Below are positions 1,711 through 24,894 of a DNA stretch of 38,657 nt, piece by piece (the stretch's first letter is position 1; the number at the start of each line of letters is the position of its first letter). A model generated the notes under the pieces. The model ran no database searches. It worked only from the letters and a program-made list of their open reading frames with translations, and was not told the DNA's origin. The position numbers and the translations under genes are program-made. The DNA comes from Chiloscyllium plagiosum (lineage: Eukaryota), in the NCBI RefSeq assembly GCF_004010195.1, contig NC_057758.1:8352956-8391612 (forward strand). Direction: 5' to 3'.

Positions 1711-2511
1711 TGTTTTGGACTAGACCAGACCCCTAAAAACATTTTCAACCATGTAACCCAGACTGCAAATTTGCGATTTATTTTGCTTGGTGTATAGTGG
1801 ATATACCTGGAGTGAAAGAGATAGCTGGACGTCCAAGTTTTGAACAAATAAAATATATTTACAAAATTATGGAATGAAACACAAAGAAAAGAAAACAGAA
1901 TACTGGATAACGTATCCAATTCAATAGGGCGAAAGTGAGGACTGCAAATGCTGGTGAAGAGAGTCGGGAGTGTAGTGCTGGAAAAAAAAGCACAGCAGGA
2001 ATGTGATGAAGGGCTTTTTACCGAAACCCCCACCTTCCTGCTCCTTGGATGCTCCCTGACCTGTTGTGCTTTTCCAACATTGCAATCTCGGATCCAATTC
2101 AGTCCAGCCTTAATGATGCTGTTCTGAACAATACTTGCAACAGTCTGAAAACACACATCCCCCAGCACAAACAGTAAAATCAAAGAAAAGTTTACAGTTT
2201 GCATGGGGAGAGAGCAGTCCAGCAGCCTTTCACATATGCCCTGCTGTGACTGACCTGATTCAAGTTCTGATCTGGACACAAACCTAACCTAAACGAAGGT
2301 TATCTATTCATCGAGCTGTCAATTCCTATTTGATTGTTTTATTCGAAGACTTGAATGTTTTAAGCTGGATGTGTTATCTGTTAGGGTAAAGAGAAAGGCC
2401 CCACTGAACAATTCAATCTACAGATATAATGCTCCCTGGTCAATTACCCCAATTCCAGGAAAGAATACATCAAGGGATAAGTAACCTTGTTAGAAAAACA
2501 GTACTGTAACA
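1711..2511 (-). mobile_element. 5' LTR of the Gypsy element
   Basis: TGT at 1711 and ACA at 2509-2511 give canonical termini. It lies upstream of the PBS and gag on the minus strand, and GPCR coding sequence begins abruptly at 2512. Confidence 0.65.
1924..2091. mobile_element. Second Penelope-tail hairpin mini-element, inside the LTR, with 10-bp target-site duplication
   Basis: Inverted arms (gtgctggaaaa..gcacagcagg / cctgttgtgcttttccaac) surround a central TGATGAAGGGCTTTTTACCGAAAC. ATCCAATTCA flanks it at 1914-1923 and 2092-2101. Confidence 0.75.
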
Positions 2512-3168
2512 CATTTGACCGATTTGTAGTGATCTGCCGTCAGAACTATCAAAAGCAGTATTGCATTAAAAGAATTGCAATCCTGTTAGGAATAGTCATC
2601 ACGAGTGTGATCGAATCGAAGAAACTGCCAGTTTTTCTTTGCTTATGAACCTGAGATAATAATTCGCAAAGTATAGTGGGGCAGCCAGGTAAGAATAACT
2701 TTGTTCTTGACTGCTGCCTGTGTAAATTGTGTCTGGTTTTGCACCGCCTGAGTGATCTGCCTTACCTTTACTCTGATTAACTTGTTCTACTTCATTAACT
2801 GTCCAACTTATTGTCGTGGCAAATAGACAGCAGAACTTCAAGGATCAAAGTGATTCAAAATGGCGACCCGCAGAAAGTCCATCCTTTTATTACTGTATAT
2901 GTCAGTAAGTTTTCTTTTTGTCTGGTTGACAATTGCCTTGACTTTAGGTGTTCCTAAACTAACGAACACCGTTTATTACAAAGGCAAGTAGACAAACGCT
3001 AAAATCACCGCTATTGAAGTTTTTCACACCTGGCAGCTTTTGAATTGTCTTCGAAATCCTTGCACGTATGCAGTGACAAAGATCAAGTTCAGAGCAGAAC
3101 TGAAGAATATGGAAAAATCACTGTGGATGACAATTTGGCGAGAAGGTCGACAGAAGTTTGTGAAATGA
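2512..3168 (+). pseudogene. GPR139/GPR142-like class A GPCR pseudogene, TM3 to C-terminus
   Basis: Not in the ORF track. Hand translation: FDRFVVICRQNYQKQYCIKRIAILLGIVI / FAYEPEIIIRKV*WGS / MATRRKSILLLLYMSVSFLFVWLTI...NTVYYKGK*TNAKITA...LLNCLRNPCTYAVTKIKFRAELKNM, ending TGA 3166-3168. It is colinear with the receptor at 15502-16399 and has several stops and frameshifts. Confidence 0.85.
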
Positions 3169-3789
3169 ATTCAATGCAGCAATTAGTTGTGACCAATAAA
3201 GTTTTCGTTTCTCATCATTCTCCATCAGAAATCTTCCTTGTCTCTCTTAAAATGAGAGACATCATTCATTTCAATGTTTGTATATCTTAGATTCCCCATA
3301 GCACCTTTAACATGGGTAATCTTTTACGTTTTCCCGTTTCTTTGTTGAGAAAGAACAACCTACTGCAGTAAAAACAGCATTTCCTGAATTCAGAGATCGA
3401 CAGTAACGGATATATTGATTTGAGCATTCATATGAAAAACAAAGGATTATGTGCAAATACACTTCGAAGAAGTGTATTTGAAGCCATCATTCAAATTTTG
3501 TTCAGTTCTAATCAACAGGACGATCTGTCCACATGCTTTGTTAATTTTCTTGGACACTAATGTAATGGCACGTTATGGGAGAGAGTTCATCAATGAGAAA
3601 CCGACATAACTCATTTCATACGATTTAGCTCATTCGGAGGAATCAGACGACACTCATCTATCGATGAAGCATAACTTCTTTATTCTTAGCCATTTCTTTC
3701 AACTGAAGTGTCGCACTTATTACAGTTATTGTCTTTATCAATCGCGAATAGTACAACGACGTCTCGAGTTATATTAGTAAACATAAAAT

Positions 3790-3875
3790 GATAGAAAAAC
3801 TCAGCATGTCTGGCAGCATCTGCGAAGAGAAGAAACGGGTAATCATATCCAGGTACTGTGAATCTTCTTCAGAAA
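3790..3875 (-). repeat. Degenerate Penelope-tail fragment
   Basis: aaaaactcagcatgtctggcagcatctgcg...ttcttcagaa resembles the fragments at 15335-15420 and 1070-1100. Confidence 0.45.
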
Positions 3876-6084
3876 TTGAGTAACTTTATTCCATTTTATC
3901 TGCACCTGTTGTGAAAACAATGGCGAACAATTCTGTAATTGACGTTCACAAAGCGTTATTAAGAGGTATGTTTCCCGTACGTTTACTGTAATCCAAATGA
4001 AACAACAGCAGAAATTCTGATAAAATCAGATTGATATAGATGATTTGCTAATGCAAACAGAACGTGCTACAGGAACTGAATAGTTCTTGCAGATTCTGCG
4101 GAAAGGTGAACAAATAATGTTGAGACCAATTGCCTTTCTTCAAGGCATATCTAGTTGAACATTTCCACTCTCTTGAGAAACGAAAGTCAAAGACATAGTT
4201 GTCATCGTCTGAGGTATTTTCTAACTCTATCAAGTCATAACAGCTATGCTCACGGGGGAAATCATGTTAAAACCAAATTCACCTGAGCATTTGAGATAAA
4301 TTCACAGTTTGTGCTTGTCTTTTCTTTTCTTTGACTGGCCTAGTCTGCGATGAGCGAGGTAAAATTGAATGCAAGTCTAACTGGTCTCTTAAAATTTGTC
4401 AAAATTTTGGAAGAGTGAAAGGTAATACCTTATCCTCTTACCTTCGCGCTTACCACATGTGCGAATAATGAGTGGAAATTCTTGAAGAAATGTGGAGAGA
4501 AGCAAGTTTAGAGAAAACGTGAATGTATAAATTTTGCTGGATTGTGAACTACTTTGACACAAAGTGTTTCAAACATGGAATTAGACAATAATTGCAAGCA
4601 TAAGAAAACGAATGTAGGCTTGGACAGATTCACAGAGTCATTGATTCTTTTGCAGGAATTGAAGTCTTCAAATGTTCTCCATTGACCAATTTGCACAAGC
4701 TCATTCACCCGCATTTTATATAATCATTTCACAGAATGTATGTGCCAATGGCTGGACGAGCACTTGTTGTTCAAATTGCACCAAAAGGCATTTAAGCATC
4801 AATCACATTGCCGTGGTTCTGGATGTAACGTAAGCACCGTATTTATTTTCCCTGAAAGACATCATGAAGCACAGTTGATTTTTTCTTTAACAATTATTAT
4901 ATTCCAAGATGTTTACCCATTTGTCTCATTGTGTTCAAATTTCCCAAAGAGAATTCTGCTTCTGAAAGGTCAGTGAACTTGAATCTTTTATGCTGTCAAA
5001 AGTGTTGAAATTTTGTAGCATTCTTTGGTTTACCGTGTTCCATTTGAGATCATTAATCTTTGTGTTGGATTTACACTCTTTCAAAGCATATTGGACACTT
5101 TCTTCCCATTCTGGCAATGAAACCATCTCTTAGCCACACACTGCAGAGTACATTAAGTTATCAATTACACCAACCAAGATGGCAATGTGGAGAGAATGTC
5201 AAAACAAATTCCTACCGTCACAATATTCTGAAGAAATGACACGTTATTCAGTTTATTAGATTCTAAATTACCCCACCTGCATTGGGATCATTTATACAAA
5301 TCGTTCGGAAGAAAGAGAACCAGAATACTGTGATTATTCAAAGTAAACTTTATCGGTGGAAATATTAATATTTGTCCACATGCATGTCGAGATGCTGCTA
5401 CATCTCTACGTAATCTCAATTTTAAACCTAACTTGCTAGTTCCCCCGTCGATCATATGGTATTCCAGCTGTTGTTACTTTTGAGGATCTGTTTTATTCTG
5501 ACTGTGTTTTCTGAAACGGAGAATTATGCGCAGTATGCTCTCAGATGAAGCCAGCCCACGCACAGATTAACCAGATTTGCAGAAAAATGCTTTAGTCGTG
5601 AATGGCTAAATGAATGGGGGAAAAAAATCGAGAAGCATTGCAAATGATCATGATTGATTAGAGAGTGGCATATGACAGAATGTCGGAGTAAAAACCTAAA
5701 CGTGTTTGTTTTCGAAACAGTGTTCATTCAGTTTCAGTAACCAAAATTCGAATGTACAAGTGGCGAACTTCTTCTGATTTTGTGAGAAATAAACTGCTGT
5801 GAAATGCTCTCGAGTCTCCGTCAAAATCCAGTTCCTTCAATAGATTTTAATTCAGATTCTTCCATTTCTCCTGAAGATACTGCTTAATGGTTTCACCGTC
5901 ACCCACACTTCTTAATTATCAGTGGAGCATAGTGGAGAACCCGGCCTCATAGCAATGGGGAGAATCAGAAAGACACGGGAATGCAATGCTAAGAAAAATA
6001 AACATCGTTTCTCTGTACGTCATCTCAGTCAACTATAACCTGTCCTGGTCATCGTTAATGGTGAATTCTACATGGATATATGGC

Positions 6085-7165
6085 TTAGAGTGTCACACAA
6101 AGTATTTACATTACTTTGAGCAGGAATTGGTGGAAGCGAGTTCCGCAACATGGGGACCTGTGACCAGTGGTGTTTCACAGGAATCCGTTCTGGGAACATA
6201 GTTGTTTGTGATTTGCATGAATGACTTGGAGAAATGTATAGGTCATCTGATTAGCAAGCTTGCAGTTAACACGAAGATTGCTTGTCGAGCAGTCAGTCAA
6301 GTGGCCTGTCAGAGAATGCTGCAGCATATAGGCGGATGAGAAAGTTGGGCAGAGAAGTGGCAGAGGTATTTTAATCCGGGCATGTGCAAAATGATGCATG
6401 TTTGAAGATCCAATTCAGGAACGAAATATGCAATACATGGAAAATTCCTGGGGAAAATTGATGTACAGTGACATCTGGGTGTTCAGGTCCATTTTTCACT
6501 GAAGGTGGCGACGCAGGACAACAGATTGACCAAGAAGGCATCCGACATGCTTCCTTCATCGGACGGGGTATTGATTATAAGAGTTGGCAGGTCATAATAC
6601 AGTTGCATGAGACTTTGATTCGTCCATATTTGGAATTCTGCGTTCAGTTCTGGCACCACATTACCAAAATAATGTGGATGTTTTAGAAAGGGTGCAGAGG
6701 CGGTTCACTGAAATGTTTCCTGGTATGGAGGAAACTGGCTATGCACAGATATTGATTAGATTAAGATTATTTTTACTGGAAAGACGGAGGTTTGGGGTGG
6801 TACGATATTGATGTCGACAACATCACGAGATGTACAGTCATGGTGGATCAAAGAAACATTTTTTTTTCTTCACCAGATTGGACGACTCAATTACTAGGGG
6901 TCACGAGTTCGAATTGAGAGGAGCAAGCTCAGAAGAGATGTACGTGGTAAATTCCTTATGCATAGGGTCATGGGTGACTCGAGCACGTTGCCAGCAGAGA
7001 TGGTAGTGGTTTGTACAATGGAGTCAGTTACACATGAATGGGCTGTGGGCAAAGGGATTCAGAATCTGAGAAAATAGGTGACAGGTTCAGGTCGACGATC
7101 TGGATTGGCACAGGCTTGTTCCCGTCCCATTGTTTTCTTGGTTCTTTGTTCATGTTCTTTGTTCA
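6085..7165 (+). mobile_element. 5'-truncated CR1 (HER1-like) LINE: RT C-terminus and 3' UTR
   Basis: VTSGVSQESVLG (GVPQGS motif) and IRPYLEFCVQFW motifs, with a tail of tgttctt-like short repeats at 7131-7165. Confidence 0.85.
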
Positions 7166-7184
7166 AATGTGACATGTTTGTGTT

Positions 7185-8720
7185 GAATCGCAGCAGATGG
7201 AGGAGGACCTCAACTAATACTTCTCCTCTGTGTTTACGTGGAGAATAACATGAAGCCTTGGAATTTGGGAAGGTTTGTGGTGATATCTTTGGGACAGTCT
7301 ATAATCCATAGAATAGTTTGCGTTGGCTGTATTGCAATCTATGAAGGTAGCTAAATACCTGGTCGTGACCAGGTATATCCAAGAACACTGCGTGGTGGGT
7401 AAGATTCTTAAGCAGATTCTCAGAGAGAGATGTACATGCGTTTGCAAAGACACAATTTGATGAGGAATAGTCAGCGTAGCTTTGTGCGTGGGATATAGTG
7501 TCTCACGAATCCTTCGAGATCTTTGATGAAGTGACAGGAATGTTGACAAGGACACGGCGGTATACTGAGACTACATGGATATTAGCAAGGCCTTTTTGAT
7601 GAGGTTCCATTTGGTTGATTGCTCTGAAATTCGAAGTCGAATGGAATCCTGTGTAGCTGGAAAATTAGATACAAAGTTGTCTTGACAGTAGGAAACAGAG
7701 CTAAAAATTAAGCCTGCCAGACTTCATGATTGTGATTAGTGGGTTTCCACAGGGGTCAGAGGTCGGTCTATTCTGTTTGTTAAGTACATCAATGATTTGC
7801 ATGAAAATGCACAAGGCATGGTTAAACAGTTTGTAGATGACAGTGAAATAGGCAGTGTCGTGGACAGTAAGGAAGCTTCTCAGAAATTGCAGTAGGACCT
7901 TGATCAGCTGGGGAAGTGGGCAGGGAAATGACAAATGGCGTTTCAAATGGGCAAGAGTGAGACCTTGCGTTTTGGAAAGTCAAATCACGGCATCAGGCTC
8001 ATGGTGAATAGTACGGCCTGAAGGAGTGCAGTGGAATAGAGGGACCTTGGAGTTCAGGTTCTCTCAAAGTGGAGTCAAACGTAGACAGATCAGCGAAGAA
8101 GGTTTTTCACAATTTGGCAAAGCCTAAAGAAGTTTGGAAGTTATATTGCAGCTGTACAGGTCATTCCTTGCCGTAATTGGAGTACAGCATTGTATTCAGA
8201 CTTGTTCAGTTTGCAACAAGAACAATGCCATTAAACTGGAAATAGTGCAGAAGAAATTTACCAAGAGTGGTCTAAGTTACAGTGAGAGTTTGGACAAGCT
8301 GGGACTCTTTTCCTTAGAATGTGGGTGACGGAGTGGTCTTCCTATGGAAATGTTAAATATCATGAGTGGCATGTTTCGGATCAATACAGTCAATCTTTCT
8401 TCCCATGGGTATGGAATCGAGTGCTACAGGGCTTCATTTAAGATTAGGTGGGAAAGAATAAAAATAAACTTGGCGGGGAGATTTTTCTTCACGCAGGAGG
8501 TGGTATACAGATAGAATCAGCCGCCATTGGCAGTTGTTGAAGCAGGTATGTAAACACCATTTAAAGGCTTTTGGCTAAATACATGAATAGGAAAGGATTA
8601 GTAGGAATTTGGCCCAGAACAAAGAAATGGGTTTAGCATGGACGGAAAATTTCCTCAGCATGCACTAGTTTGGGCTAAAGGGCCTGCTCCATGATGTCAG
8701 ATTCTATGAATCTGTAACTG
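7185..8720 (+). mobile_element. Decayed CR1 LINE ORF2 (RT) and 3' tail
   Basis: YFSSVFT, MDISKAF (about 7575), GFPQGS (7741), FVDDSEI (about 7830) and KLEIVQKKFTK, ending in gggcctgctccatgatgtcagattctatga. Confidence 0.85.
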
Positions 8721-9249
8721 TAGAATAACAACAAATCATAATGATAATTGTACAAATAATAATTAGTGTTAGTTTGCCGATTATCCCTCAACGTCCATCG
8801 AGTTCTCCTTCATTATCATCCAAACTTTGCTCTGGATGTTTGAAAATTCACAAATGGGATGTAGGCATGAGTTACTTAACTGAGGAACAGAGGTTTTCAA
8901 AACCAGAGCAAACAATATGAAAAGTGGAGGGAGAAACATCCGGAGCCATGCTTTCCCCATCTTTTGCTGATCACCATAAAGCCACAATGTGCGGTGCATG
9001 AACACCTGAGAGTGTTATATGAAAAATGACAAGTTTTTGTAGTTAATCATCGGACAGCTATGGCGACCATAGACTCCAAACTCAACGTGAAAAAGCATTG
9101 GGCTAACAAATGCGAAAAGCGTGAACGGGAGGACCTCCCTACCTTTGCAATCTATTTCGTTTGAAATAACGACCAACAAATTATTTGTGTTCCCTATTCA
9201 CCACATAATCTTGGATACTGGACATTTTTTTGTAATTCATGCAGATGGA

Positions 9250-10140
9250 CGGTCGAGTATTTTCATTTTGTAGCTTTCTGCAGTCTTCCTTCTTCTAAAT
9301 ACTCGGCATTTCCTCGATGCTTCCAGCCAATGTACATTACCTCACATTATCCCACATTACATTTCATCAGCAAGTTGTTTTTCCCACACAGCGAATTTAT
9401 CTCTATCCCTCTGCAGACAATTTCTGTCATCCTTGCTACCTGCCTTTCTGTTGGCTTTTCTCCGATTAACGCATATAAAATATATGCATGAAATAATTAT
9501 GGCTCCAGAACTCGTCTTTGCGTCCCTACTGTGGGTTGCAGTCTGCGATCCTGAAATTGCACTCAACTGACACAGCTCTGCCTTGTGTTAGATGACCAAT
9601 TGTATGTGAAAACAGAAAATTAGAGCACTAGTAGAACATTCGGCACTCTTATTTTTTTCTCCCATGATAATGCTGATCATCTCGCTCATACTTTTTTTTC
9701 AATTTCTCCCCCTGGTTTTGCTCAGTTTAATCCTAAGGTCTTTCTACAACTCTTTCTTCATAACGTTCAATGTTTCGACCTCAACTGCCTTCTGTGGCAT
9801 GGAATTTCACACGCTTGCCGCTCTTGATGAACAAGCTTTTCCTCATTTCGATCGAAGTGTTCTACCACGGATCCCTGGTAATGAACAACTATTTTCCTAT
9901 CTAATTCCTCACAGCAACATTCATACTGACACGTGAAGAATTCTAGTTCTTGTATATGCCTACTTTGGAAAGCACTGTGTGCCACTTGGAGTCCACAAGG
10001 GCTTCGCCACTACTCTCTAACATACAGGCAGTATTGACCGATAATGTTCAGTCAGCATCCCTTCATTGAACATCACTAGTCCGTATCCTGTCCAGAATGA
10101 GTAAATGTTCCTTTCTATGGTCCAAATTATGATGAAGCGA
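9250..10140 (-). mobile_element. Old CR1 LINE fragments (RT piece 9250-9600, 3' end 9605-10140)
   Basis: The minus frame has CLQRDRDKFAVW (LQRDIDRL-type motif). ctcaactgccttctgtggcatggaatttcac resembles the CR1 3' region also seen at 11090-11120 and 12020-12055. Confidence 0.6.
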
Positions 10141-10433
10141 AGGGGTTAAAGCAAATCTATTATTTCAAACATTCCAAGTATCATCAGTCACTGCGGCACT
10201 GAACAGTGTCTCTGGAGGCTGACTCTCTGATTTTAGAAAATATCATTCTTTTTACTGAAGTGTTCCATATTGTTGTAGGAGCATCGTCTCTGCAGCTCGA
10301 GTCAGCGGTGAATCTAGAGAGAACGAGAAGGACAGCGGTTTGAGAGAGAAAGAGAATATGATCAGATCTTAAAGCAAGAGACTGGAACTTCACAATAAGT
10401 GATGAGAAGCTAAGGAAAATCGATTGGACCATT

Positions 10434-10595
10434 ATGAGAATGGTTCAGAATCTGAAAACAAAGGATTGGAATATACCTGCCATGGATACGAATCTGGATA
10501 CAATGCACTGGAATGTTACAATGCATTTCAGGAGTCTCTTGGTATCTTTTCGTACTTTCCACTTATTATGATCGTTTTTCATTACGATCCCAATC
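10434..10595 (+). pseudogene. Candidate degraded first exon (extracellular N-terminus) of the GPCR at 15502
   Basis: MRMVQNLKTKDWNIPAMDTNLDTMHWNVTMHF is built from 21/42-nt repeats and contains a WNVT sequon. It is on the same strand, upstream of the TM1-start exon. No TM1 or splice donor is recognisable. Confidence 0.45.
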
Positions 10596-10914
10596 TCCGA
10601 AGTAGCTTTCCCCTTTCTTTTGTTGACCCTCTATATCCGGAAATTGGGCATACATATCCAGTTTTTTGAAGCACAGGAGGAATTTGTTGAATTCGGTAGT
10701 GCCAATGTCATGCATCAATATTCGTACATCAGTCTGTAAAACTCGATTCGTTTCGCCTTGACCAGCTAGGTTTTCGAAGATCAAAGCTGTCTGCTTCAGA
10801 GTAGCATGCAAGATCTATTGCCTGACTATTGACTCCGCTACATCATAGCATGAGTTTGAAACAGACTGTGCCACCTTCACTTTTTTTGTTTTAAATGCGA
10901 AATATCGAAAAAGG

Positions 10915-11340
10915 GAAAAGAATAGAAGCAGTCTATCAAATGGCCATCCCAGCTTGATCCACCATTCCGTGTCATCATGACTGAATATCCAACTTAGTCT
11001 CACTTTTTCACGTTCTCCCCATGTCCTTTGATCTTTTCGGGCTAATAACACTATCCAACTGCTTCATGAGATATTCAGTGTTTTGTTCTCATCATCTTTC
11101 TATGGCAGGGAATTCTGAAGGTTCGTCTCTGACTTGGTGAACTTGTCCCTCCTCATCTCAGTTCCACACTTTATCATTGGCCTGTGACAGGGACATCCTT
11201 CCTGCACTCACCATATCTTGTCCTACTCCAAGTGTTAGTCCGAGGTTTCAATGAGATCTGCCCCGATCTGCCCACACACACCCCATTCTTCCAAACTCCA
11301 TTCGATGCAGTCCCCATCGAGGCAGTGTCATGAAACGTTA
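10915..11340 (-). mobile_element. Old CR1 LINE 3' end
   Basis: ggccatcccagc...ccaccattc...tcatgactga tail pattern is shared with 11850-11920 and 16580-16635. Confidence 0.6.
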
Positions 11341-11829
11341 ATCCTGTGATCCAGCAATCAGTGCGATAGCAAGAGACTGGGACTTCACAGAGGTGAAGTC
11401 ATCTCATATATTCCCCATTAGCAAATTGTCACCGGTTTCCTCAGCAGTAAACTCAATCTCACCTCTTCACATTCTCAGCTGGTCACTTTCTAGTTAGAAA
11501 GATGCATGAGCAAAGTGTTATGAAACAAACGCCACCATCCCATCAGCATGGTGTTCACTCGTCCACGCTCTTTCACAGCATGTCAGTTCCTCAATGCTGC
11601 AATTTCCATCAATACTTCTGCATTTATATGAAGCCCAATTTCCTCATCCGCTGCCCATTTCAAACATTCCGACGTTTTTTTAAAAATCAAAATCGGAATT
11701 CCGACAGACATTATTTTTTATTGTTAGCTCTGTTCCAGAGTTGTCTCAACTTGGTATGCGCTGATAAGGTGCCAATGTCAGAAATCAAATCATCCAGAAC
11801 CTAAACCTATGATCAATAGACAAGGACTC

Positions 11830-12540
11830 GAAACTCACAACGATCTTGTGAAGTTGGCCAGGTGTCGGCCATTCAGCCTCTTATGCCTGGTCGACCATTT
11901 AACTTAATCATAGCTGACGTAATTTAGATCACAATTCCACTTCCATGCCAGTTCCCTTTGACTAATTGCTCATTAAAGGGATGTCAATATCCTTCTCAAA
12001 TGCAATCAGTGCCCGAATACCCACTGCACTCTGGAAGAGTATACTCCACGAATTCAAAACCCATTAAAAAACGATGTACTCACCACCGACTTTAAAAATT
12101 TGTTTCCCATTCGAGCAAAAACACCACCTATCCTTCTAGATCGCCTCAAAAGGTGAAACATTGCCTCCCAGCTTACTTTGTCCGTCTGACTTAGCATTTT
12201 CCGAACCAAAAATGGGACTCCTCTGATTGTTGTAAAGTCCAGCGTATATGCAGTTGTACTCCCCTAAAGCTCCTTGCGAGAAAAGCCTGTCATTTCTGAT
12301 TGAGTGAATCCCCCTCTTTAGTGCTTCCCATGTAATCACATCCTTGATCTATGAAGAGAAGCACAACTGAGCACAATACTGCAGGTGCAGTCTCACAAAT
12401 GTCTTCTACAGATAAAGCAACGTTTCCCTCCTTTTATGGTTCTTTTTCAACAATGAACGCTAGAAATTGCAATTTCCCTAATTATTACCTGTTGTACCTT
12501 CACACAAGTAGTCTGCGATTCATGGTATCAAGGTGATATT
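11830..12540 (-). mobile_element. Old CR1 LINE 3' end
   Basis: gccattcagcctc...accatttaac...atcatagctga tail and cacaatactgcaggtgcagtctcac (reverse of an RPHLEYC-type motif). Confidence 0.6.
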
Positions 12541-12784
12541 TGAATTCTATGAAGGACTAGAAGGAAATGCTCATCTCATCATGACCCTTTAATTATTGTC
12601 AGCAATTAAAATAAAAACTATTCCAATCAGTTTATATGTTTGACCGAATGAATTGATGTGTTATTCGGCTACCTTGGTTTATCAGTGAAGTATGTAAGCA
12701 GTGGTATCGATTGCAAACATCCTACAAGACAGAGACCAGATCAGTAAAGGGCAAACAATCTTTTTGAAGACTTTACTTTTCTGT

Positions 12785-13810
12785 ACTTCACACATGGGAC
12801 ACGTGCGTCGCTGGCCAGTCCAACATTTATTGCCCGCCCCTGGTTACTCAGTGTCAGAACATTTCTGAAATCTTGTAGTCCATTTCCTTGGCGAGGGATT
12901 TTCAGGAATTGATGCAGCGACAGTAAAGGAAAGATGATATATTTCCAAGTCTAGCTGGTGAGTGACTCAGTGAGGAAATTGTGAAAAATATGCTTTCAGA
13001 TAATTGCTGCAGTGTGTAAAGCGGTCATTTGGCCCAACAAGTCCACACTGACTCTCTGAAGCGTGCCACAACTGGACTTGCTTTCCTACTCGATATTTAC
13101 CAAACGTAATGCAATTACTCTACACATCCGTGAACACCATGGTCAATATAGCATGGCTAATTCACCCAAAGTACAACATACTTGGACTGTGGGAGGAAAG
13201 CGGAGCACCCAGACGGGACACACACAAATGCAGGGACACTGTGAAAAATTCACACAAACAGTCGCCCAAGCCGGAAGTGGAACTCGACCACCTTGCACGA
13301 TAAGGCACCAGTACTTACCATTAAGCCATCATGCCGCACCCTTGCGTTTCGATGTATCTGCTGCCTGTGTCCTTCTTGATTTTACTGATCGTGGGTTTGT
13401 TTGGTGTTACAGTGTAGATAGTACTCACTGCTGTCTTATGTTGGATGAGAGGACCTGTGTGAATGCAGTGCCAGTTAAGGAGTAGTGTTAAGATGTATAG
13501 AGGAGTCTCCGTTTTGTTGGGTTTGAACAAATTCAAGCAAGTGGCGAGTATTCCAATACACACCTGACTACTTGTGCCTTGTAGATAGTGAACAGAATTT
13601 GGGAAGGATTCAGGAGGGAAGGCATTCTCTGCAACGTTCCTCGACACCAACCTGATGTCGTTATTCTTCATGATAGTCGACTGCTGAGTCAGTAATGTGA
13701 AGAGTATTTAAGATTACTATCCTGGAAACAAGGATTTAACGATAAGGCAGGGCAATGATAATGTGAACGATCTTATTGGCAGAAAAACAGAGCATAAAGG
13801 AAGGGAAGAG
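12785..13810 (-). mobile_element. Decayed LINE of a second family (CR1/L2 group, Crack-like): ORF2 C-terminus and 3' end, split by a SINE
   Basis: The minus frame at about 13530-13610 reads PSQILFTIYKAQVVRCVLEYSPLA*, an IYKAQVRSxMEY-type motif unlike the HER1-like copies. It is interrupted at 13010-13340. Confidence 0.65.
13010..13340 (-). mobile_element. tRNA-derived V-SINE (HE1-like), full length and diverged
   Basis: Minus strand has an A-box tggcttaatgg, a B-box-like gagttccactt, the V-domain gggtgctccgctttcctcccacagtccaag, and a CR1-like tail gtgtggacttgttgggccaaa. Confidence 0.85.
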
Positions 13811-13812
13811 AA

Positions 13813-14890
13813 TGACTCAAAGGAGGACCACTTCCACGAGAGAACACACCAGTTGGTATCCTTCTTTGAAGACTGTAATTTCCCAACTTACGTGGTTGAA
13901 GATGCCCTTCAACGCATCTCATCCACGTCCCGCACTTAGTGCTCAATCACCAACCTTCCAACAATAACAAGGACAGAACCACCCTGTCCTCACCTTCCAC
14001 CCCCACCAACCTCCACATCAACCGTATCATCTGCTGGCATTTCCGTCACCACAAACAGACCCCACTACCAGGATATATTTCCATACCCACTCCAATCTGC
14101 TTTCTGCAAATACCTTTCTCTCCTGAATACCTAATCAGGTCCATGTCCCTCTACATACAATCCTTCCCCCCACCACCTTCCACTGCCACTGCAGGCATTG
14201 CAAAATTGCAACACCTCCCCCTCACCTCGATCCAAGGCACCAAAGGAGCCTGGCACATCCATCAAAGTTTCACCTGCACTTCCACAAAGGTCATTTATTG
14301 CATCAAATGCTCCCGATGTCGTCTCCTTTTAATTGGGGAGACTGGACGCCTTCTCACAGAGCGCTTCAGGGAACATCTCCGGGACACCTGCAGCAATCAA
14401 CCCCACCGAGGACATGAAGGTCGTGGGCCTCCTCCACCGCCACTCACTCACCACGCGACGCCTGAAGGAAGAACGCTTTACCTTCTGCCTCAGTATCCTT
14501 CAAACCCAGGGCATCAATCTGACTTTCACCAGTTTCCTCAATTCCCCTCCCCACCTGTCCCTAGTTCCTAACCTCCAGCTCAGCACCATCCTCATGACTT
14601 CTCCCACCTGTCAATCTTTCTTCCCACCCCTCCGTTCCATCCTCCGCTCCAACCTATCACATTTACCCCTTCTCCATCCACTTATTGCACTCTCAACTCG
14701 CTTCTCCCCAGCCCCACGCTCTCCCATTTATCTCTTCATGCCCGAGGCTTTCAGCCTCATTCCTGATGAAGGGCTCCTACCGGAAATGTCGATTTTCCTG
14801 CTCCTCGGATGCTACATGACCTGCTGCGCTTTTCCAACACCACTCTAATCTTGACTCAAATCTGCAGCAACTGCAGTCGTCACTTTTGCT
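13813..14890 (+). mobile_element. 5'-truncated Penelope-like element: RT C-terminus, GIY-YIG endonuclease and 3' tail
   Basis: FHERTHQLVSFFEDCNFPTYVVEDALQR, then FTCTSTKVIYCIKCSRCRLLLIGETGRLLTERFREH (GIY-YIG with CxxC), and TLQ-like ILQTQGINL. The pyrimidine-rich tail has CTGATGA..GAAA at 14763-14786. Frameshifted. Confidence 0.9.
14758..14795 (+). ncRNA. Degenerate minimal hammerhead ribozyme motif
   Basis: attc-CTGATGA-agggctcctaccg-GAAA-tGTC-gatt: core boxes are intact but stems II and III are mutated. Confidence 0.5.
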
Positions 14891-15334
14891 ACAGGTGTAG
14901 ATTCACCGAGTCTGAAAATCCAAACTGACAAAATATAATTTGAGGGAATGTGAGTTTCTGCAGTTATTAGAAGGTGGAATAGAGGAACTGTATACCACTT
15001 AAATGGAGAACTGCATGGTTGAATGCCACTACATTGCAGTTAATTTATTTACAGCTCTCTGCTTTCGAATTCTGTCCATGAAATAATCTACAGTCACCGC
15101 ATTTGATTCTTTTCGCCCCATGCCAACACTACCCACAGCTTCATAGTGATTCACTGTTTTGTTAACTGCATTTTCTACTTCCGAAACCCTGGATGACACA
15201 TTGGAAGACAATTTCCCTTTTACAATGCAATTTTTATTTTTCAATATGTTTGTCCTGCGTCAATAATTAACACAGATCAATTAGTAAAAAGGGAACCAAT
15301 TGCGAATATCATAAATCAAAAACTTAAATAGAAG

Positions 15335-15420
15335 CTTTTTGAAAAGCTGAGCAGGCTTGACAACATCTATGAAGAGAAATCAAAGTTAACGTTTCAGGTC
15401 CGGTGATCCTGACTCAGAAC
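15335..15420 (-). repeat. Penelope-tail fragment in the GPCR intron
   Basis: Minus strand gttCTGAgtcaggatcaccggacctGAAACGTTaac is a hammerhead-like remnant. Confidence 0.5.
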
Positions 15421-15501
15421 AAGTTTTCTAAATCCTCATTCGAACTGATTATATTTTCTAGCCGGATGTACTCTCACCGTGTGTATTTCACATCCTCACA
15501 G

Positions 15502-16399
15502 TTAACTTAATCACAATTAGGATCCTGAATCACGGAGGGTGCGGTCTCTCGAATTGCATCACAACTTACCTGATCGCCATGGCAGCTTCAGATCTCCTGG
15601 TAATTATTCTCGATCTGATTTTGAGGCACTTGCCGACCCTTTATCCAAGAACATTTTATGCATTGCTGGAACTGCCATATGTAACGTCCATGCTGTTCTG
15701 CTTTATGCAGTAACTGACTGCTCTGTGTGGTTCATGGCCGCATTTACCTTTGATCGATTTGTGGCGATTTGTTGCCAGAAACTGAGAAATAAGTATTGCG
15801 TTGTGAAAACAGCGACCATAGTTCTGGGAACAGTGACTGTGGTGAGCATCTTAAAGTATATTTTGTGGTACTTTGCCTTAACGACTAAGTATCTACACAT
15901 GAACTTCCCGTGGTTTTATGTTACAATGGATTACGTTCAGACCTCTCCGGTCTGGGTATCAACCGAGTTCCTGCACAACATACTAACATCATGTATTCCA
16001 TTTCTTCTGATTTTACTGTTCAACATCTTCACAGTCAGACACATTTTAGTGAGCAGCAAATTCCGCAGGCGACTGCGATCATCCAGCAATAATAAAAGTC
16101 ACAAAGACACAGAGATGGAGAGTCGATGGAGATCCATCATTTTGCCCCTAGCCATTTGCGTGAACTTTATCTTGTTATGGTCAACTTTAACGATTTATTC
16201 TGTTTGGATGTGGATCTTTAATTTAGGTTTCAGATCTGTGTTAATGCCTTATTATATGCAATAACTGGGTTTCATGTTGCAGCTCCTGAGCTGCTGCACT
16301 AACACGTGTGTCTATGTCGTGACCCAGAGTAAGTTCAGAGAGCAGCTCAACAATATGCTGAAATATCGCTTAACCCTCATTCTTCAATGTCTGCAATGA
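15502..16399 (+). pseudogene. GPR139/GPR142-like GPCR main coding exon (end of TM1 to TM7 and C-terminus), disabled
   Basis: Acceptor catcctcacAG at 15500-15501, phase 1. Reads (V)NLITIRILNHGGCGLSNCITTYLIAMAASDLLVIILDLILRH, then a 1-nt frameshift at about 15675-15679. Continues CNVHAVLLYAVTDCSVWFMAAFTFDRFVAICC...DTEMESRWRSIIL, with in-frame TAA at 16262-16264, then LGFMLQLLSCCTNTCVYVVTQSKFREQL to TGA 16397-16399. Confidence 0.9.
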
Positions 16400-16769: not shown

Positions 16770-19700
16770 CACAAAAAAAAGAACACAAACGCAGTACAGG
16801 CCCTATGAACCTCGATGTAGCGCCGACGTATCCAACCAATCTGAAGTCTATCTTTACGACACTATTATATTTTCATCCATATGTTTATCGAATGAGCATT
16901 TAAATGCAATAATGTTGGTGAGTCAACTACTCTTGCATCGGGGCTTCCCTCGTGCCCACTCATGCTTGAGGTAAGAATCTATCTCTGATATCTATCCTGT
17001 CTTGCACCTGTATATTTATAGCTTTGTCACGTCGTGCTCGCCATCACCATCTGAGGTGAAAGGCTCTCACTGTCCACCCTTTCTAACCTACTAATTATCT
17101 TATGTGTCTCAATTAAGTCACGTCTCACCCTTCTTCTGTCTAACGAAAACAGCCTCAAGTCCTCAGACTTTCGTGCTAAGAGCTTCCCTTCTTACCAGTC
17201 AACTTGTTATTAAATCTCTTCTGATCTCTTTCAAAAGGTTCCATATCTTTCCTATAATGCAGTGACCATAATTATCCAAGTACGGCCCCACCAGAGTTTT
17301 CTACAGTTGCAGCATATCCTCATGGTTCCGCAAATCAATCCCTCCAAAAATAAAAGCTAGCGAACTGTATGATTTTTTTAACAAACCCAACAACTTGGGT
17401 GGCAACTTTCAAGGGTCTGTGTGCATGGACAACGAAATCAATTTTCCAAATTTCCAAGAATGTTACCATTAGCTCAGTACTCATTACTACAGCAGCTGGT
17501 TGCAAAGTGAATCACCTTTCCACATTAAACTCTCCTGCCACCTCTCAGTCCAGGCTCTGCAGCTTATCTATGTCCCTTTGTAAACTGCAACATCCTTCAA
17601 CATCATCCAAAACCACACCGGCATCAGTGTTATCTGCAAATTGAATAACCCATCCTTTCTCGTCCTCATTGAGGTCCTTTAGAAAAATGACAGATAGCAA
17701 ACGCACCAAAACAGATCGTTGCGGTACGCTACTAGTAACTGACCTCCAGGATGAACGTTCCCCATCAACCAACGCCCTCTGTTTTCTTTCACATGTCAAT
17801 TTCTTATCCAAACAGCTAAATCACCTTTAACTCATGCCTCCATATGTTGCACAACAGTCTACCATGGAGAACCTTATCAAACGCCTTACTGAAAGACATA
17901 TACATGACACCAAACGCTTTACCTTCTTCCACCTGTTTGCACACCAGCTCAAAGAAATCAATAAAATCTGTGAGGCATGAAATTGCCTTCAGACAACCGT
18001 ATTGACTTTTCCAAATCAACTCCTTCCTCTCTACATGATTACAAATCCTAACTTTTATAACCTTTTGTAACGCTTTACACACAACTGAAGTAAGTTTCAT
18101 TAGTCTATCATGACCAGGATTGTCACTTCTTGAACAAGGGAGAAACATTTACTATCCTCCAGACTCCTGGTAGTATTCTTGCCGAGAATGACGACATAAA
18201 GTTCAAAACAATCGACTGAGGAAAAACCTCACGGACTTCCAGAGATGTCTATGATAGATCCCATCTGTTAGAAGGGATCCATCTCTTTTCGCACTCTCCA
18301 GAATTGGAAACATCTCTTCCATGTGAACTTCAATCCCGTCTCGGGTAATAGCCTGTATGTTAATATTCTCCTCTACAACATTGTCTTTTTCCTTTTTGAA
18401 TACGGAGGAAAAATATTCATTTCGCGCTTCCCTAGTCTCCTTGGACTCCACACCCAACCTCCCACGACTGTCTTCATTAGCCTTAAGCTTTCTCTCGTCA
18501 TTGGTTTTTCCTGATTTACCTACAACGAGGTTTAGAGTTGCCCTTGGTCATGTCTGCCAATGACTTCTTAAGTACCCTCCTGGCTCTTCTTAGCTCTCTC
18601 TTTAGCTCACACTTGGGGAACTTCTAACGGTCAAGCGCCCTAACTAAGCCTTCATGTCTCATCCTAACATAATTCTGCTTCTTTTTAACAAGAGATTCAA
18701 CTTCTTTAGTAAACTACGGCTCCCTGTCTGACAGGTACATACCTATCAAGGACACACAGGAGTGGCTACTTGAATGAGCTTCACATTTCAATGCAGTTTC
18801 CTTTCATCCTGTATACCGTAAATCTTACCTAATCTCATCTTACTAGCCTTTATCTCAGCAATAACTCTTTCCCTGCCTTATATACCAAGCCCTTTCCATC
18901 TCGAAAGTTAATATATTCGAATTATGGTTACTATCACCGCAGTGCCCACCAAACTCCAAATCTAACACCTGGCCTGGTGCATTACCCTGAACCAAATTCA
19001 ATGTAGCATCGCCCCTTGTAGGCTTGTCTACATGCTGTGTCAGGAAACCATGCTGCACACAGTGGACAAAAAATCACCAACCTAAAGTACTCGAACTGCA
19101 TTTTTACAAGTCAATATTTGTAAATTTAATTGCATCCATAACAACCACAATGTTACTCTCAATCCTATCCAGAATTATCTTTGTTATACTTTGTTTTACA
19201 TCTCTGGAAATATTCCGAGCCATGGAGAAAAGGTTTGACTTCTCCTTTCCTGTTTGTTACCTCACTCCATACTACTGCAGTAGACGAGTTCTCAAACGTC
19301 CTCATTGTCAGTGTAGTCCTGTCCTTAGTGGATAATGCCACACTGCCCCTTTTTTTTACGATCCTCTCTGTTCTTACCGAAACATCTAAATACCGGAACC
19401 TAAAACAATCATCCCGGTCTCGGCTCTCTCCATGTCTCCGAAATGGCGACATCATCGAAGTCACAAGTACCAAACAATGGTGCCATTCACTTCTTTTCCG
19501 GATCCTCCAAATGTTGAAGTAGACACAGTTCAAACCACCGTCATGCTTGCTGGTGCACTCTTGCGACTTTGAAACCTCATTTCTGACCTCAATTCTCACA
19601 ACCTCCTGGATATTGGAACTATAATTTAAATTTCCATTCCTCTGCTGAATTAGTTTAAACCCTCACATTACAATGTTCACCTCCAGGATACTGGTACCCC

Positions 19701-20160
19701 ACTGGTTCATGTGAAGACTATCCTGTTTTTAGAAGTCTCACCTATCCCAAAATAAGCCCCAATTACCCAGACATCTGAAAACCTCCCTCCTGCACCATCC
19801 CAATAGCACGGGTTCAACTCATCTCGCTCACTATTTCTCTCTTCGCTAGCATGTGGCAGGGGCAAAAAAAGATAACAATTCTGTTTGTTGTAGCATTAAG
19901 CTTCCACCTGACACCCCTGAATTTCTGCCATAAAACCCGATCCCTTTTCCGACCTATATCGTTAGTAACTATGTGGACCACTACTTAGGGTACTCCCCTT
20001 CCCCCTCAAGGATGTCGAAAACTTGATTGAGACATCACGAACGCTGGCACCTGGCAGGAAACACACTACAAATGAGACTCTCTCTTTTTCACAGAAGCAG
20101 CTATCTGTCTCTCAGACTATGTAATCCTGAATGAATAATGGTATGCTCATCTCCTCCCTA
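16770..20160 (-). mobile_element. Near full-length decayed CR1 LINE (ORF1 esterase, AP endonuclease, RT, 3' UTR)
   Basis: LNCVYFNIWRIR (EN start), FLTQHVDKPTRGDATLNLV..DSNHN (EN end), NEYFSSVF, YMSFSKAFDKVLH, VTSSVPQRSVL and FADNT. The ORF1 remnant QDSLHMN is at about 19700. Confidence 0.92.
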
Positions 20161-20164
20161 TTCA

Positions 20165-21380
20165 TGAGGTAGCTATCGTAATATGTGATCCATCCTCCCA
20201 TCAGTCCCCTGCTCGACGCTCCAGCTCTTTCTACTGCTGAAACGAAAATGGAGGGCCGCGACCCTCGAGGTAAGTTCGCTCAATCCATTGAGAAAACAAT
20301 TCCGACTCATCTTTTCTAAATCTGCTCGCCTTTATCCTAATACTATAATCTCTCGCTCTAGATTGCCCCTCTGCTTTGCCTTTGCCAATCATCTTTCGCA
20401 TCATACCATCGTTACTTAAACCTCCTCTCATTCTTCGAAACTGCAGCGAACGTTTAGCCCCAAACAGCTCAATATGTCTCCATAAGCCAAGGACATTTCA
20501 TCTGGACTAGATCTGGTGAAATTATGCTGAACTTCCACCAATGCAGTAACAATCTCTCAAGGGAAATATAAAAATGTTACGCTGTACTGCAGACGTGAAA
20601 ACACCAATGCCTTGAGCAGTTGAATCAACACTTCCCTGCTGCTAATATTACCGTACTTGAACAGTAACTGCAAACATTCCATTTGCCATCGTATTACCTG
20701 CTTTTCCAACCTCTGAGCCGTCTGGTCATATGACGTTTTCCAATTCAAATAATTCTCAAGAGGGAAGTGAGAAGGCTCATTTGAAACAAAAGATAAATGC
20801 TTCTACAGAAAAGAGACATGAAGTCCATAGCTTTCCAAAGCTCATTGATGTTGCCAACCTCGAAAGAATAATTCATGAAAGATGGCTGTCATCAAGTTCC
20901 TGCCTTTTTTGCATCACAATTGACTCCCTGATCTCTCTGAACTCTACCTTTCTCAGGCTCCTAGACATTGAGTGATTCAGACTGCAGTCCTTGTTCGATT
21001 GGGAGAAGATGTGTGCAGAGATGTCAGAACATTCCCGTCCTCCAGAAAACGAGATATATTCCCATTATCATCTCATGTTGTAAATCGACTCTTTCAAAGC
21101 AGTTCATCTCTCAAATGTCTTGTCACGCAGCTTTCATGCATTATTAAATCAGATCATCACTAAGCCTCGTGAAGTCTATTGGGTGTGAAGCAAAACTCTT
21201 CACCTTCTCATCTGGAATTCAAAACACGGCCGTTTCCTTCCGAAGGGACCTTATGCAAGTATGCATTCAGCCCTTTTGATAAAATTTGGTGATTTTCCAA
21301 ATACTTATCCACTCTTTTGGGTGAAGCACCAACGTTGTGTTTATTTTTACAATTGCTCTGCAGATTGCAGTTATTTGAAA
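20165..21380 (-). mobile_element. Two old CR1-type 3' fragments (about 20165-20720 and 20880-21380)
   Basis: The minus frame has SREVLIQLLKALVFSRLQYSVTF and RDYSIRIKASRFRKDE, typical of ORF2 C-termini. The second piece is weaker. Confidence 0.55.
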
Positions 21381-24023
21381 AACCGACCGACTCCGAATAT
21401 TCCAAAACATTTATGATCTAGTGGGAATTCAGTCTATGGCTTCTGCTGATAAGGTGGTCTTGCTACCCCTGCACAACAATAAGAGCTCAGAGATGAATGA
21501 CGTCACTGAACGTAGTAATAGAGTGGTGAAACTATGAGAATTTTGAATCAAATTCTTCGTGTGTGATGTGAGACACATCCAGCACATGCGGAACGCCCAC
21601 CCAGGCTTGCAGAAAAAAATCAAACATAGATGATAGAACTGTGTAGCGAAGTACAGGGCCTTTGGACACGATATTGTGCCAAGCATTTATCTTAAACTGA
21701 GATCAACCTAGCCAACACATCCCTCAATTCACTGCCATCCATGTCACTTTTAATTCCCTAATGTCTCTAACTCTACTACAATGGCCGGCAGTGCATTCCA
21801 CACACCCACCACGCTCTGCATAACCTACTCCTGACGTCCCCCTCTACCCTCCTCTCATCATCTGGACATTGTGATACCCCGTGACAGTTATTTCTGCCGT
21901 GAAGATAAGCCTTCGGCTGTCGCCTGTAACTATGCAAGTCACCACCTTGTACACTTCTATCAAGTCACCTCTCTTCCTTCATCTCTCCAATGTCAAAAGT
22001 CCTAGCTCACTCGACCACTCTTCAGTCGACAAACCCACAAATCCAGGCAGCATCCTGGCAAAACACTACATTACTCTTACTAAAACATGGACATCCTTCC
22101 GATAATGGCATGACCAGAATTGAATATAAGTTTCCAAGTGTAATCTATCGAGTTTTATGTAGAGTTGCAGCAAAAACGTGCGGCTTTTAAACACAATCCC
22201 CCAATTAATGAGAGTCAAAAAAGAAACATCACAAGCCTCATTAACACATTTACCCTCTTGGGTGTAAACTTTGAGGCATCTATTAACGTGGACCCCAAAA
22301 ACTTGCTGCTCATCCACATTGCCAAGAACCCTATCTTTACGGCTGTCAAGATATTCAAACTTCCAAAATGAATCACTTCACATTCGTTCATGTTGAACTC
22401 CATGTACCAATAGTCATCCCAGCTCTGCATCCTGTCAATGTCTTATTGTAGCCTGCAAGAGCCAGCGACACTGCATACAACATCACCGAACTTTGTGTCA
22501 TCGGAAAATGTACTAACTCACCTTCCACTTCTTCATCCAAGTCATTTATCGAGAAATTCCGAAGTGCAGAGGCGCAAGAAAAAAAATCCTTTTGCGTCAC
22601 CACGCGGAATATTCCCATCCACTAACGTTTGCTGTCTTCTTTCGGTCAGCTACTTCTATATGCAGACAACCAAATCTCCCTGTTTCCCATACCTCCTAAC
22701 TGTCTGAAAGAGCTTACCATGCAGAACCTTATCAGATGCCTGACTGAAATCCATACGCATTGCATCCATTGCTCGACCTTCGTCAATGTGTCTCATCATA
22801 TCCTCAAAGAACCTAATAAGTCTTGTGAGGCATGAAGCTGCCCATCACAAAGCCATGCTGACTTTCTTTAATCAAACTATGTTTTCCCAAGTAATCATAA
22901 ATCCGACCTCTCAGAATCATTTATCGTACCTTGCTTGCCATAGACCTAAGACTGCCAGTTCCATAATTCTCAGAGATTTCTCTATTCCCTTTCTTGAAAA
23001 AGGACAACAGTCGCCTCCCTCCAATTAGTTGGAACTAACGCCGTTAACATTAAGGATACAACGATCATCGCTAGAGGCGCTGCAATGTCATTGCTCGATT
23101 CCCTTATTAACCTTTGGATAAATTCTACTAACCTTGGAAATACCTGTTCCACCCATGTCGACTTATCAATCTTGATGTTTCCCAGAATTTCCAACACATC
23201 AACTTTCTTAACATCAATCTGTTCAATCCCATTAATCTGGTCCATGGTGTTCTCACGATCAAGCAGTGAATACGGAAGCAAAAAAAAACTTATTTAGGGC
23301 TTCTTTTATCTCATCACACTCCAGGAGCAAGTTCCCTCCACTATTCCTGATTGGTCCTACCAATCTCTGATCATTCGATTATTCCTCACGGAAGTGCAGA
23401 AAATCTTCGTTTTTTTCTTAATTGTTACCGCCAAGGCTTTTTCGTACCCCTCCTAGCTGTGCCACATCCCTGCTTCCTCACCCTTAAGTAAGCTTCCTTC
23501 TTCCCCTTGACGAGAAACTCCTCTTCTCTTGGCATCCAAGGCTAGTTCAACTTACTATTTATCTCCTGGCTCATTTTGATAAGCTATCCAAAATTCGCGA
23601 TCAGTGCTCCTTAAAGTATACACATTTTGATTGAGTATTTCCCGTAGAAGATTTTATTCCCAGCTTATACGGCACACCTCATGTCTAATAGCTAGAAAGC
23701 ACCCAATGAATTGACTGCTCCATTTCTGTTATTGACGTCGACCCATAGTGACTCAGTGGATAAACCTTCCTCAACAAATTTCTTTTCTGCAGCTGTGATG
23801 CACTCTCCAATTATCAAAGATACTTTCACTTCAATTTCAACCCACACCCTGTTCTTCTTGAAATATTTAAACCCTGGAACATCCAGCAACTGTGCTTGTC
23901 AGTGTGAAATCCATGTCTCTATTGAGACCATGACATCATTATTCCAAGTGGTTATCCGTTCTCTAAGTTCATCACTCTCATTCCTGACACTCCTTGCATT
24001 GAAACAGACACACTTTAACTCAT

Positions 24024-24391
24024 CTAAATGTGTGGCTACGAAGGATAGCTGGTCATGTCGTTTCGTTTCAGATGACAATCAACATGAGTTCGACTGGGAC
24101 AACACTACTATTATAGGATAAGCCAAACAGAGAACAGCCAGGGAATTCCTAGAGGCATGGCACTCATCCACAGATTCAATAAATAAACACATCGACCTGG
24201 ACCCAATATACTGACCACTGCAACGGACAGCTGGAACTGACAACCGGAAGCGGCAGAGACAAACCACTATAAATGCCGAAGGAAACATCACAGAAGCGCT
24301 TCCCAGGAGGCTCCCAAGCACTGAGGATGTCACCTAGACAGGGGACGAAACGTCTGCAAAACAAATTCCCAGCTCGGCGAACAGAACCACA
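24024..24391 (+). mobile_element. Penelope-like element 3' fragment with 14-bp target-site duplication
   Basis: HEFDWDNTTIIG*AKQRTAREFLEAWHSSTDSINKHIDLDPIY is the GIY-YIG C-terminus. It is flanked by acactttaactcat (24010-24023) and acacttaaactcat (24392-24405). The uninterrupted CR1 site is visible at about 36920-36945. Confidence 0.9.
24318..24357 (+). ncRNA. Minimal type I hammerhead ribozyme
   Basis: GCA-CTGAGGA-T-GTCaCCT(agac)AGGgGAC-GAAA-C-GTC-TGC. Core CUGANGA/GAAA/UH is intact, stem I is GCA/UGC, and stem II has 6 bp. Predicted cut is after C24354. Confidence 0.8.
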
Positions 24392-24894
24392 ACACTTAAA
24401 CTCATACCTTTGCCCTATCAAATGTGTATCCCTCCTGACTGACTCTCTACGTTCTACTCCTGCCTGTTCAACAACTACCTTCTCCTCTGATCTGTACCTC
24501 TGCTTCCCATCCCCCTGCAAAACTGTTTTAAACCCTGGCAAAGGGCTTTTGTAAATATCCCGGTCACGGCATTGGGACTCCTCTAATTTAAATGTCACCC
24601 GTCTTTTATACATAGAGGTCCCAATTTCTTTAGAAAGTACCCTAATGATCTCCATATCCGAAGCCCTCCCATCTTCCACCAGCACTGTGGCCACGTGTTT
24701 CGTTGCACTCCCCCCATTCCTCACCGCACCAACGCCTCCACGCATTCAGACCTGGAACGAAGGTAACCACCACTGTGCCATCACCTCCTGAATTCGTCAT
24801 CTACTTGCCAAGATTTGGTGGTTCAGGCCGAGAAATCCTGTGTCCATTTTTACTGTTGTATTTTGATTCGCTTCTCCCATTAAATAACCTTATT

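Follow-up and report, generated by a model that had tools for sequence, protein, structure and literature searches.

Dead receptor genes in a shark genome window point to a very large orphan G-protein-coupled receptor family of cartilaginous fishes

What kind of gene family left the broken, GPR139-like receptor sequences in one stretch of the Chiloscyllium plagiosum genome, and what would its intact members do? [quoted passage not shown] It is highly probable, on our analysis, that the window holds an array of pseudogenes from an expanded family. At the level of sequence this is an old and very large orphan class A family of cartilaginous fishes, held in tandem arrays that turn over by duplication and decay, and the window copies are dead members of it.

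Table 1. Coordinates of the receptor remnants and of other mapped features. TM, transmembrane helix; ECL, extracellular loop; LINE, long interspersed nuclear element.
Feature	Position	Strand	Extent or basis
Copy A, pseudogene remnant	2511-3135	+	DRF motif (TM3 end) through helix 8
Copy B, pseudogene fragment	5745-6129	+	ECL2 to start of TM7; C's subfamily; cut by LINE
Copy C, exon 1 remnant	about 10365-10660	+	Four degenerate 14-codon N-terminal repeats, then start of TM1
Copy C, exon 2	15502-16399	+	TM1 (second half) through stop codon
Copy D, most decayed remnant	29240-29888	+	TM3 to helix 8; third subfamily
LINE remnants	6130-8615 (right end approximate)	+	Start exactly at the break of copy B
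RVT_1 LINE remnant	27079-27711		Pfam
RVT_1 LINE remnant	35292-35840		Pfam

Remnants were sought by six-frame translation, tblastn with 120 homologues, hmmsearch with a profile of 75 full-length homologues and frameshift-aware alignment, with two shuffles each as score controls for A and D. Copy A is interrupted by stops at 2674, 2749 and 2989 and by three frameshifts; it matches its own-subfamily consensus at 89 of 207 residues (score 290, shuffles 28-31), and its 5′ half was not found in the window. Copy B (hmmsearch E 4.5e-10; 53/116 identical to consensus) has stops at 5790, 5841 and 5930 and two frameshifts, and its remainder was not found in 6130-10300, where a tail search scored 36 against 27-29 for shuffled sequence. 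Seven stops and four frameshifts disrupt copy D, which retains 73 of 201 residues of its own-subfamily consensus (score 195, shuffles 26-30) and whose hmmsearch match extends to the end given in Table 1. By their lesions all four copies are dead, and we predict that they yield no protein. A preliminary description of this DNA had reported two divergent, co-oriented, disabled copies about 12 kb apart in repeat-rich sequence. These are A and C, which lie about 12.4 kb apart (3135 to 15502) and share 58 of 191 residues, and the surroundings hold LINE remnants, RVT_1 in two of the six window pieces scanned with Pfam, and many self-matches, so that each part of that account was borne out; to it we add remnant B between the two, exon 1 of C, and remnant D. 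A and C are no recent duplicate pair. In a self-comparison of the window no DNA-level match joined the four remnants at E<=1e-4, which argues against recent segmental duplication.

Copy C is the best preserved over its second exon, in which 189 of 300 residues match the family consensus (Pfam 7tm_1, E 3.4e-10). This exon opens at a phase-1 acceptor before N1.50 (cacag at 15497-15501) and carries two lesions, a frameshift near 15678 and the stop TAA at 16262. Exon 1 (tblastn E 1.6e-10; score 97 against 21-22 shuffled; 21/34 identical to consensus over 10482-10584) is broken as well, with a frameshift near 10536 and an in-frame stop at 10359, and no clear 3′ end or splice donor was recognised for it. 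Its repeat gives the strongest lag-21 and lag-42 periodicity of the window (0.45 and 0.43; mean 0.26, sd 0.04). Elsewhere in C's subfamily (P0106, P0121) the N-terminal 14-residue repeat includes a possible N-glycosylation site, and by a motif count its copy number ranges from 0 to 5 across 77 long homologues; few class A receptors have a glycosylated stalk of varying length. In copy C a Tyr replaces the ECL2 disulfide cysteine, which is Cys in 100% of filled rows among the 120 nearest homologues. Since both exons carry lesions and this cysteine is lost, copy C is very probably a true pseudogene. It might instead be an intact gene whose lesions are assembly errors, as exon 2 has one frameshift and one stop only, and the organism A contigs listed read G at 16262 (3/3 and 5/5). 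We consider this very improbable: the two contigs fully listed over that position are about 87% alike, so paralogues, and neither the broken exon 1 nor the replacement of an otherwise invariant cysteine fits an intact copy.

A protein search with copy C returned 1833 of 2081 candidate clusters (90% identity) at E<=1e-5. Among the best 120 of these 1833, 119 come from ten shark species, their identity is 55-63%, and most are called 'probable G-protein coupled receptor 139'; horn shark accounts for 47, and so has at least 47 paralogue clusters at 90% identity, whale shark for 25 and Heptranchias for 17. Full-length models of 330-410 residues with a Met start make up 75 of the 120. A profile search of 50%-identity representatives gave 133 at E<=1e-30, and when 30 of 150 listed representatives were looked up, 22 fell inside the clade, 21 of them chondrichthyan (sharks, four ray genera and Callorhinchus). 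A metagenome scan gave 28 pattern matches and no confirmed locus. Members also go under the labels 'neuropeptides capa receptor-like', 'GPR15-like', 'GPR142', 'vasopressin V2 receptor-like' and 'tachykinin-like peptides receptor 86C', and such mixed automatic names would mask the size of the family in name-based counts.

The genes are also clustered. In whale shark 14 of the 25 rows lie on one 94.4-Mb record and in horn shark 8 of the 47 on one 90.1-Mb record, the latter species also placing P0153, of D's subfamily, on the same record as members of C's subfamily; in catshark four consecutive accessions, one 90% cluster, share a 98.3-Mb record. Of the contigs from two DNA runs of organism A, 34 and 37 respectively have loose ends at 15746 that carry the TM3 motif of the family, a pattern that fits many paralogues. 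Many paralogues, tandem clustering with pseudogenes, and subfamilies older than species are thus all present, as birth-and-death evolution would have them. The preliminary description had proposed just such a lineage-expanded, clustered array with birth-and-death turnover, against which it set few copies or a lack of clustering. Neither was found: the 1833 clusters, the shared records and the presence of three subfamilies in the window uphold the proposal.

To place the copies we built a tree of 79 rows with IQ-TREE (LG+G4, no mixture model), leaving out P0406 for its long branch and with no true GPR139 or GPR142 sequence among the rows. The sister of copy A is whale shark P0174 (100/98), and the clade around them holds ray genes. 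Copies B and C fall inside one 18-row clade (100/100), although B fills 22% of columns only, and D belongs to a five-row clade (100/100) that constitutes the third subfamily. As ray members lie inside them, the window array appears to mix three old subfamilies that predate the shark-ray split. Rays and a chimaera gene are nested within the expanded family. Its rows form a clade with a salamander gene at 100/98, while on their own they receive weak support (74/7), with 60 of 61 of them at 95/88. The anchovy protein P0268, also named 'probable GPR139', is a third divergent gene and joins neither other group.

The relation of the family to GPR139 itself was judged from class, fold and nearest sequences. 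Pfam 7tm_1 was found in 35/35 proteins, marking them as class A GPCRs, with weak Srx in 7/35, and an AlphaFold model has seven helices at a predicted local distance difference test score of 87.6. Against solved structures the family profile scored human GPR139 best of 11 (54 bits, E 1.1e-13; next 40 bits). The best solved match of other relatives was also GPR139, at 70 against 44 bits for the conserved gene described below and 101 against 60 for an amphioxus relative; copy C searched alone against the PDB, with 197 residues, gave no match at E<=0.01. In a fold search GPR139 ranked second of at least 500 near-equal matches, its 22% identity being the highest among the 50 matches listed, and this search does not set it apart from peptide receptors. 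Atlas neighbours carry the names GPR139 and FMRFamide receptor-like, and 16-87% of their members have the Srw family. Human GPR139 is outscored against the family profile by proteins of salamander, coelacanth, amphioxus and leech, and a search with two amphioxus proteins for true GPR139 and GPR142 returned 12 proteins, neither receptor among them.

Judged by these scores, 'GPR139-like' is correct as a nearest-human label and as a superclade. Orthology to GPR139 or GPR142 seems unlikely, because GPR139 is 70% identical between human and zebrafish, as given in the available part of a report that also describes its two exons (PMC7318219), against about 22% between the family and human. The label in the preliminary description therefore holds in so far as GPR139 is the nearest human receptor by sequence, but not as an identity, for sharks keep a separate, conserved GPR139-like gene. 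Represented by coelacanth XP_005988539 and catshark P0281, this gene too bears the RefSeq name 'probable GPR139'; sharks, bony fishes, amphibians and reptiles have it, and the named rows of the best 120 of 145 include neither mammal nor bird. A TM1 intron just before N1.50 is found both in copy C and in the conserved gene, and unannotated open frames match from N1.50 on (14/14) and not just before it (0/8, 1/7). Human GPR139, we assume, likewise has its intron in TM1. Two models of the conserved gene (rows P0240, P0281, P0284, P0382) are named 'transmembrane protein 183A isoform', which suggests that it adjoins TMEM183A. It has Ser or Cys, not Trp, at 6.48, and its near-invariant pocket makes it a candidate orphan receptor with one conserved ligand. 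In bony vertebrates the best candidate for a surviving counterpart of the expanded family is the salamander gene (Pleurodeles XP_069092602, Ambystoma XP_069461538; P0234, P0272-P0275), again called 'probable GPR139', which supplies the salamander row of the 100/98 clade.

Do the family members still sense the ligands of GPR139? The Trp/Phe site of the human receptor comprises F3x33, H5x43 and W6x48 with the polar N7x38 and R6x51, and its N271A mutant is described, in the sections available, as having Trp/Phe responses abolished or sharply lowered (PMC5430874). Human site residues were assigned from the alignment of the family profile with GPR139. Among 33 subfamily representatives, W6x48 is kept in 31, H5x43 in 6 and F3.33 in 5, with N7.39 kept in 2 and R6.51 in 1. 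In C's subfamily 3.33 is still Tyr/Phe, 5x43 still His and 6.48 still Trp, with Leu/Phe at 6.51 and Phe at 7.39. The conserved gene has R6.51 in 37/37, in a slow-changing pocket, and this residue is kept in the amphioxus and anchovy rows as well, so its loss is peculiar to the expanded family. An enlarged set of sensors for Trp/Phe or for amino acids in general, working like mammalian GPR139 and GPR142, would suit the first rank of GPR139 among the 11 solved sequences and the hydrophobic half of the site retained in C's subfamily (3.33, 5x43, 6.48). It is nonetheless unlikely, and more so than any reading below: the polar anchors 6.51 and 7.39 are gone, in C's subfamily and across the 33 representatives alike, and the N271A result shows what loss of such an anchor does to the human response. 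The carry-over of aromatic amino-acid sensing that the earlier account implied accordingly finds no support, as the anchors are lost and the family is separate from the conserved gene. We instead favour descent from the GPR139/GPR142/FMRFamide-MIP receptor lineage, presumably without Trp/Phe sensing.

We estimated site rates for three sets of positions: 27 in the pocket, 25 facing outward and 62 cytoplasmic. Across subfamilies (47 rows) the pocket evolved fastest, at 1.63 against 0.99 for outward-facing and 0.38 for cytoplasmic sites (p=0.007), and a second alignment of 33 rows of ordinary length agreed (pocket 1.72, outward 0.93; permutation p=0.0003). In the conserved gene the order is reversed (pocket 0.45 against outward 0.96, p=0.0006; 0.49 against 0.76, p=0.011). 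Within C's subfamily the median rates are 0.16 for pocket and 0.44 for outward sites, a weak contrast (p=0.09), and the means are 0.61 and 0.48, the former raised by two fast rim sites. Here the pocket is fixed, polar and acidic (D2.57, R2.61, H3.28, D3.37, E5.39, H5.42, E7.36), and its rim varies at 6.58, 7.32, 7.35, ECL2 and ECL3. The pocket is thus variable between paralogue groups and conserved within the one group examined, the within-group contrast being weak, and the diversification between subfamilies agrees with the earlier view that the family evolves like chemosensory or immune families.

A constant signalling face with a pocket reset between subfamilies is the pattern of olfactory receptors, and its likeness here leads us to propose a repertoire for many ligands that acts through a common G protein. 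Intact members are two-exon genes, and the receptors they encode have seven helices, a pocket capped by a disulfide and a cytoplasmic face that is conserved. From that conserved face they most likely share one G protein, and since the pocket is fixed within the one subfamily examined and differs between subfamilies, it is most likely that every subfamily has its own class of extracellular ligand. The family would then be a repertoire with which a sensory or barrier tissue recognises many chemicals or peptides. We regard such a diversified-ligand repertoire as the probable, though by no means assured, function.

Several points weigh against it. The pocket and outward-facing lists are what we take to be the class A positions, numbered from sequence anchors and not from a structure. 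The representatives that make up the deep set were selected for their divergence, and mispredicted or decaying genes may be among them. Fast pocket change between subfamilies points to different ligands or to relaxed constraint and does not demonstrate positive selection. Species are known for the best 120 matches and not for the other 1713 of the 1833, and in the window four of four copies are dead. A comparison with RNA covered 2% and 6% of two runs: one, a single-cell run, gave 1898 reads, 96% of them running on into unlike sequence and 5 at 99% or above, with two reads over 15804 that are partial, paralogue-like and carry at least seven differences, and the other gave none. In catshark brain plus olfactory epithelium the 50 most abundant and specific genes, in the portion of PMC11979771 available, include no GPCR; single members of a large family are not expected in such a 50-gene list.

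These same observations bear on a mostly neutral amplification, in which one or a few functional receptors lying in repeat-rich, recombination-prone DNA were copied passively and most copies are silent or redundant. The four dead copies amid LINE remnants would follow from it, as would the want of a clear transcript in the small fraction of the RNA runs read. We nevertheless hold it to be unlikely, as long retention is implied by subfamilies common to sharks and rays and by a chimaera gene nested in the family, the cytoplasmic rate across subfamilies is a quarter of that in the pocket, and the full-length, Met-initiated models among the nearest homologues have a near-invariant pocket.

If the family is indeed a recognition repertoire, where it is deployed can be said only tentatively. 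It may serve smell, taste or skin sensing, and might then be an unrecognised vertebrate chemosensory family, independent of OR, TAAR, V1R, V2R and T2R, that arose in the GPR139/FMRFamide-receptor lineage and reached hundreds of genes in cartilaginous fishes, with one or a few members expressed per cell in nose, taste papillae or skin; both ideas we put forward as possibilities well short of an even chance. Were the second true, no other part of shark chemical sensing would be as large, and among vertebrates the family would parallel the nematode Srw receptors. A role in internal signalling is a further possibility. An equally tentative special case of the recognition repertoire, competing with the role in nose or taste, is immune or barrier surveillance by leukocytes, mast-like cells, skin, gill or gut, in which the receptors would detect cationic peptides of microbes or of the host, as MRGPR or formyl-peptide receptors do. 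The same array and pocket pattern would serve it, and the fixed polar and acidic pocket of C's subfamily with its variable rim would suit peptides sharing a core; cartilaginous fishes are moreover described, in the part of PMC8455134 available, as being without MAS1 and its relatives. Against this, no immune gene was seen in the window.

The genes are on record in RefSeq under automatic names, but the family seems not to have been described. A literature search, with subscription papers outside its scope, found no description of the expansion or of its names, and among the supplements of PMC8455134 no match was found in the 13 of 24 files searched, one of them (file 19) apparently in part. In its available text that study reports a paucity of GPCRs in cartilaginous fishes, and for catshark 2 OR, 6 OR-like, 3 ORA and 3 TAAR genes are counted in a paper whose main text, as available, does not contain '139' (PMC11979771). 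Dozens to hundreds of members per shark, filed under 'probable GPR139', contradict this picture of a GPCR- and OR-poor lineage. The label itself misleads, as the Trp/Phe site is lost and at least three different non-mammalian genes bear the name. The dead copies of the window matter only as evidence of the age and turnover of the array; the interest lies in the family.

Apart from the receptors, the window holds decayed mobile elements. Translated with X at stops, 6136-6603 is 36% identical over 138 amino acids (E 7e-19) to the RVT_1-positive open reading frame at 27079-27711, and 8271-8615 matches 27859-28200 in the self-comparison. Several further LINE remnants lie on both strands in 17500-28200 and 31000-38657. 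An OSK-like match at 37205-37549 (E 4e-5) is under the cut-off, as is a weak zf-CCHC (zinc-knuckle) match on the minus strand at 1-291 (E 0.005), probably from a decayed retroelement gag. The intron of copy C contains a frame at 13900-14571 that gave no Pfam match and lies in a region highly repeated in organism A; it resembles what we take to be the GIY-YIG endonuclease of a Penelope-type element. Two-copy tandems of 95 bases at 26068 and 159 bases at 38309, and an N gap of 500 bases near 33.5-34.0 kb, complete the inventory.

How, then, does the family compare with known receptors? Like human GPR139 (PDB 7VUG, 9M42) and GPR142 it keeps W6.48, has a non-proline motif in place of NPxxY and consists of two exons. 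Unlike them, it numbers dozens or more genes per shark where each of those is one conserved gene, it has lost R6.51 and N7x38 and mostly P6.50, and it has the TM3-ECL2 cysteines, which the human GPR139 chain lacks at the aligned places. With the conserved non-mammalian gene it shares the TM1 intron before N1.50, the disulfide cysteines and a basic motif before TM6, but the two are about 29% identical (94/320), and the conserved gene is low in copy and stands apart in the tree, as a clade (100/100) that includes three shark rows. The salamander gene, one 90% cluster of five members in three species, keeps P6.50, K6.51 and N7.39; it is identical to the family at 89 of 322 residues, and its branch of 1.34 calls for care with the grouping. 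In the literature GPR139 and GPR142 are tied to MIP, proctolin and FMRFamide receptors (PMC12208981, PMC8514136), sharks going unmentioned in the available part of the former, and 'Orphan 139-like' and 'NMOGPR' are listed beside them as orphan groups of unclear relationship (PMC5207463, Table 1). The part of that table available gives no sequences, species or copy numbers, and these groups may be the low-copy relatives found here. The closest parallels in evolutionary style are OR, TAAR, V1R/ORA, V2R, MRGPR, FPR and nematode Srw receptors, which like this family form tandem arrays with many pseudogenes and have pockets fixed within and variable between subfamilies, but whose ancestry is different: the shark family gives Pfam 7tm_1 only, besides its weak Srx matches.

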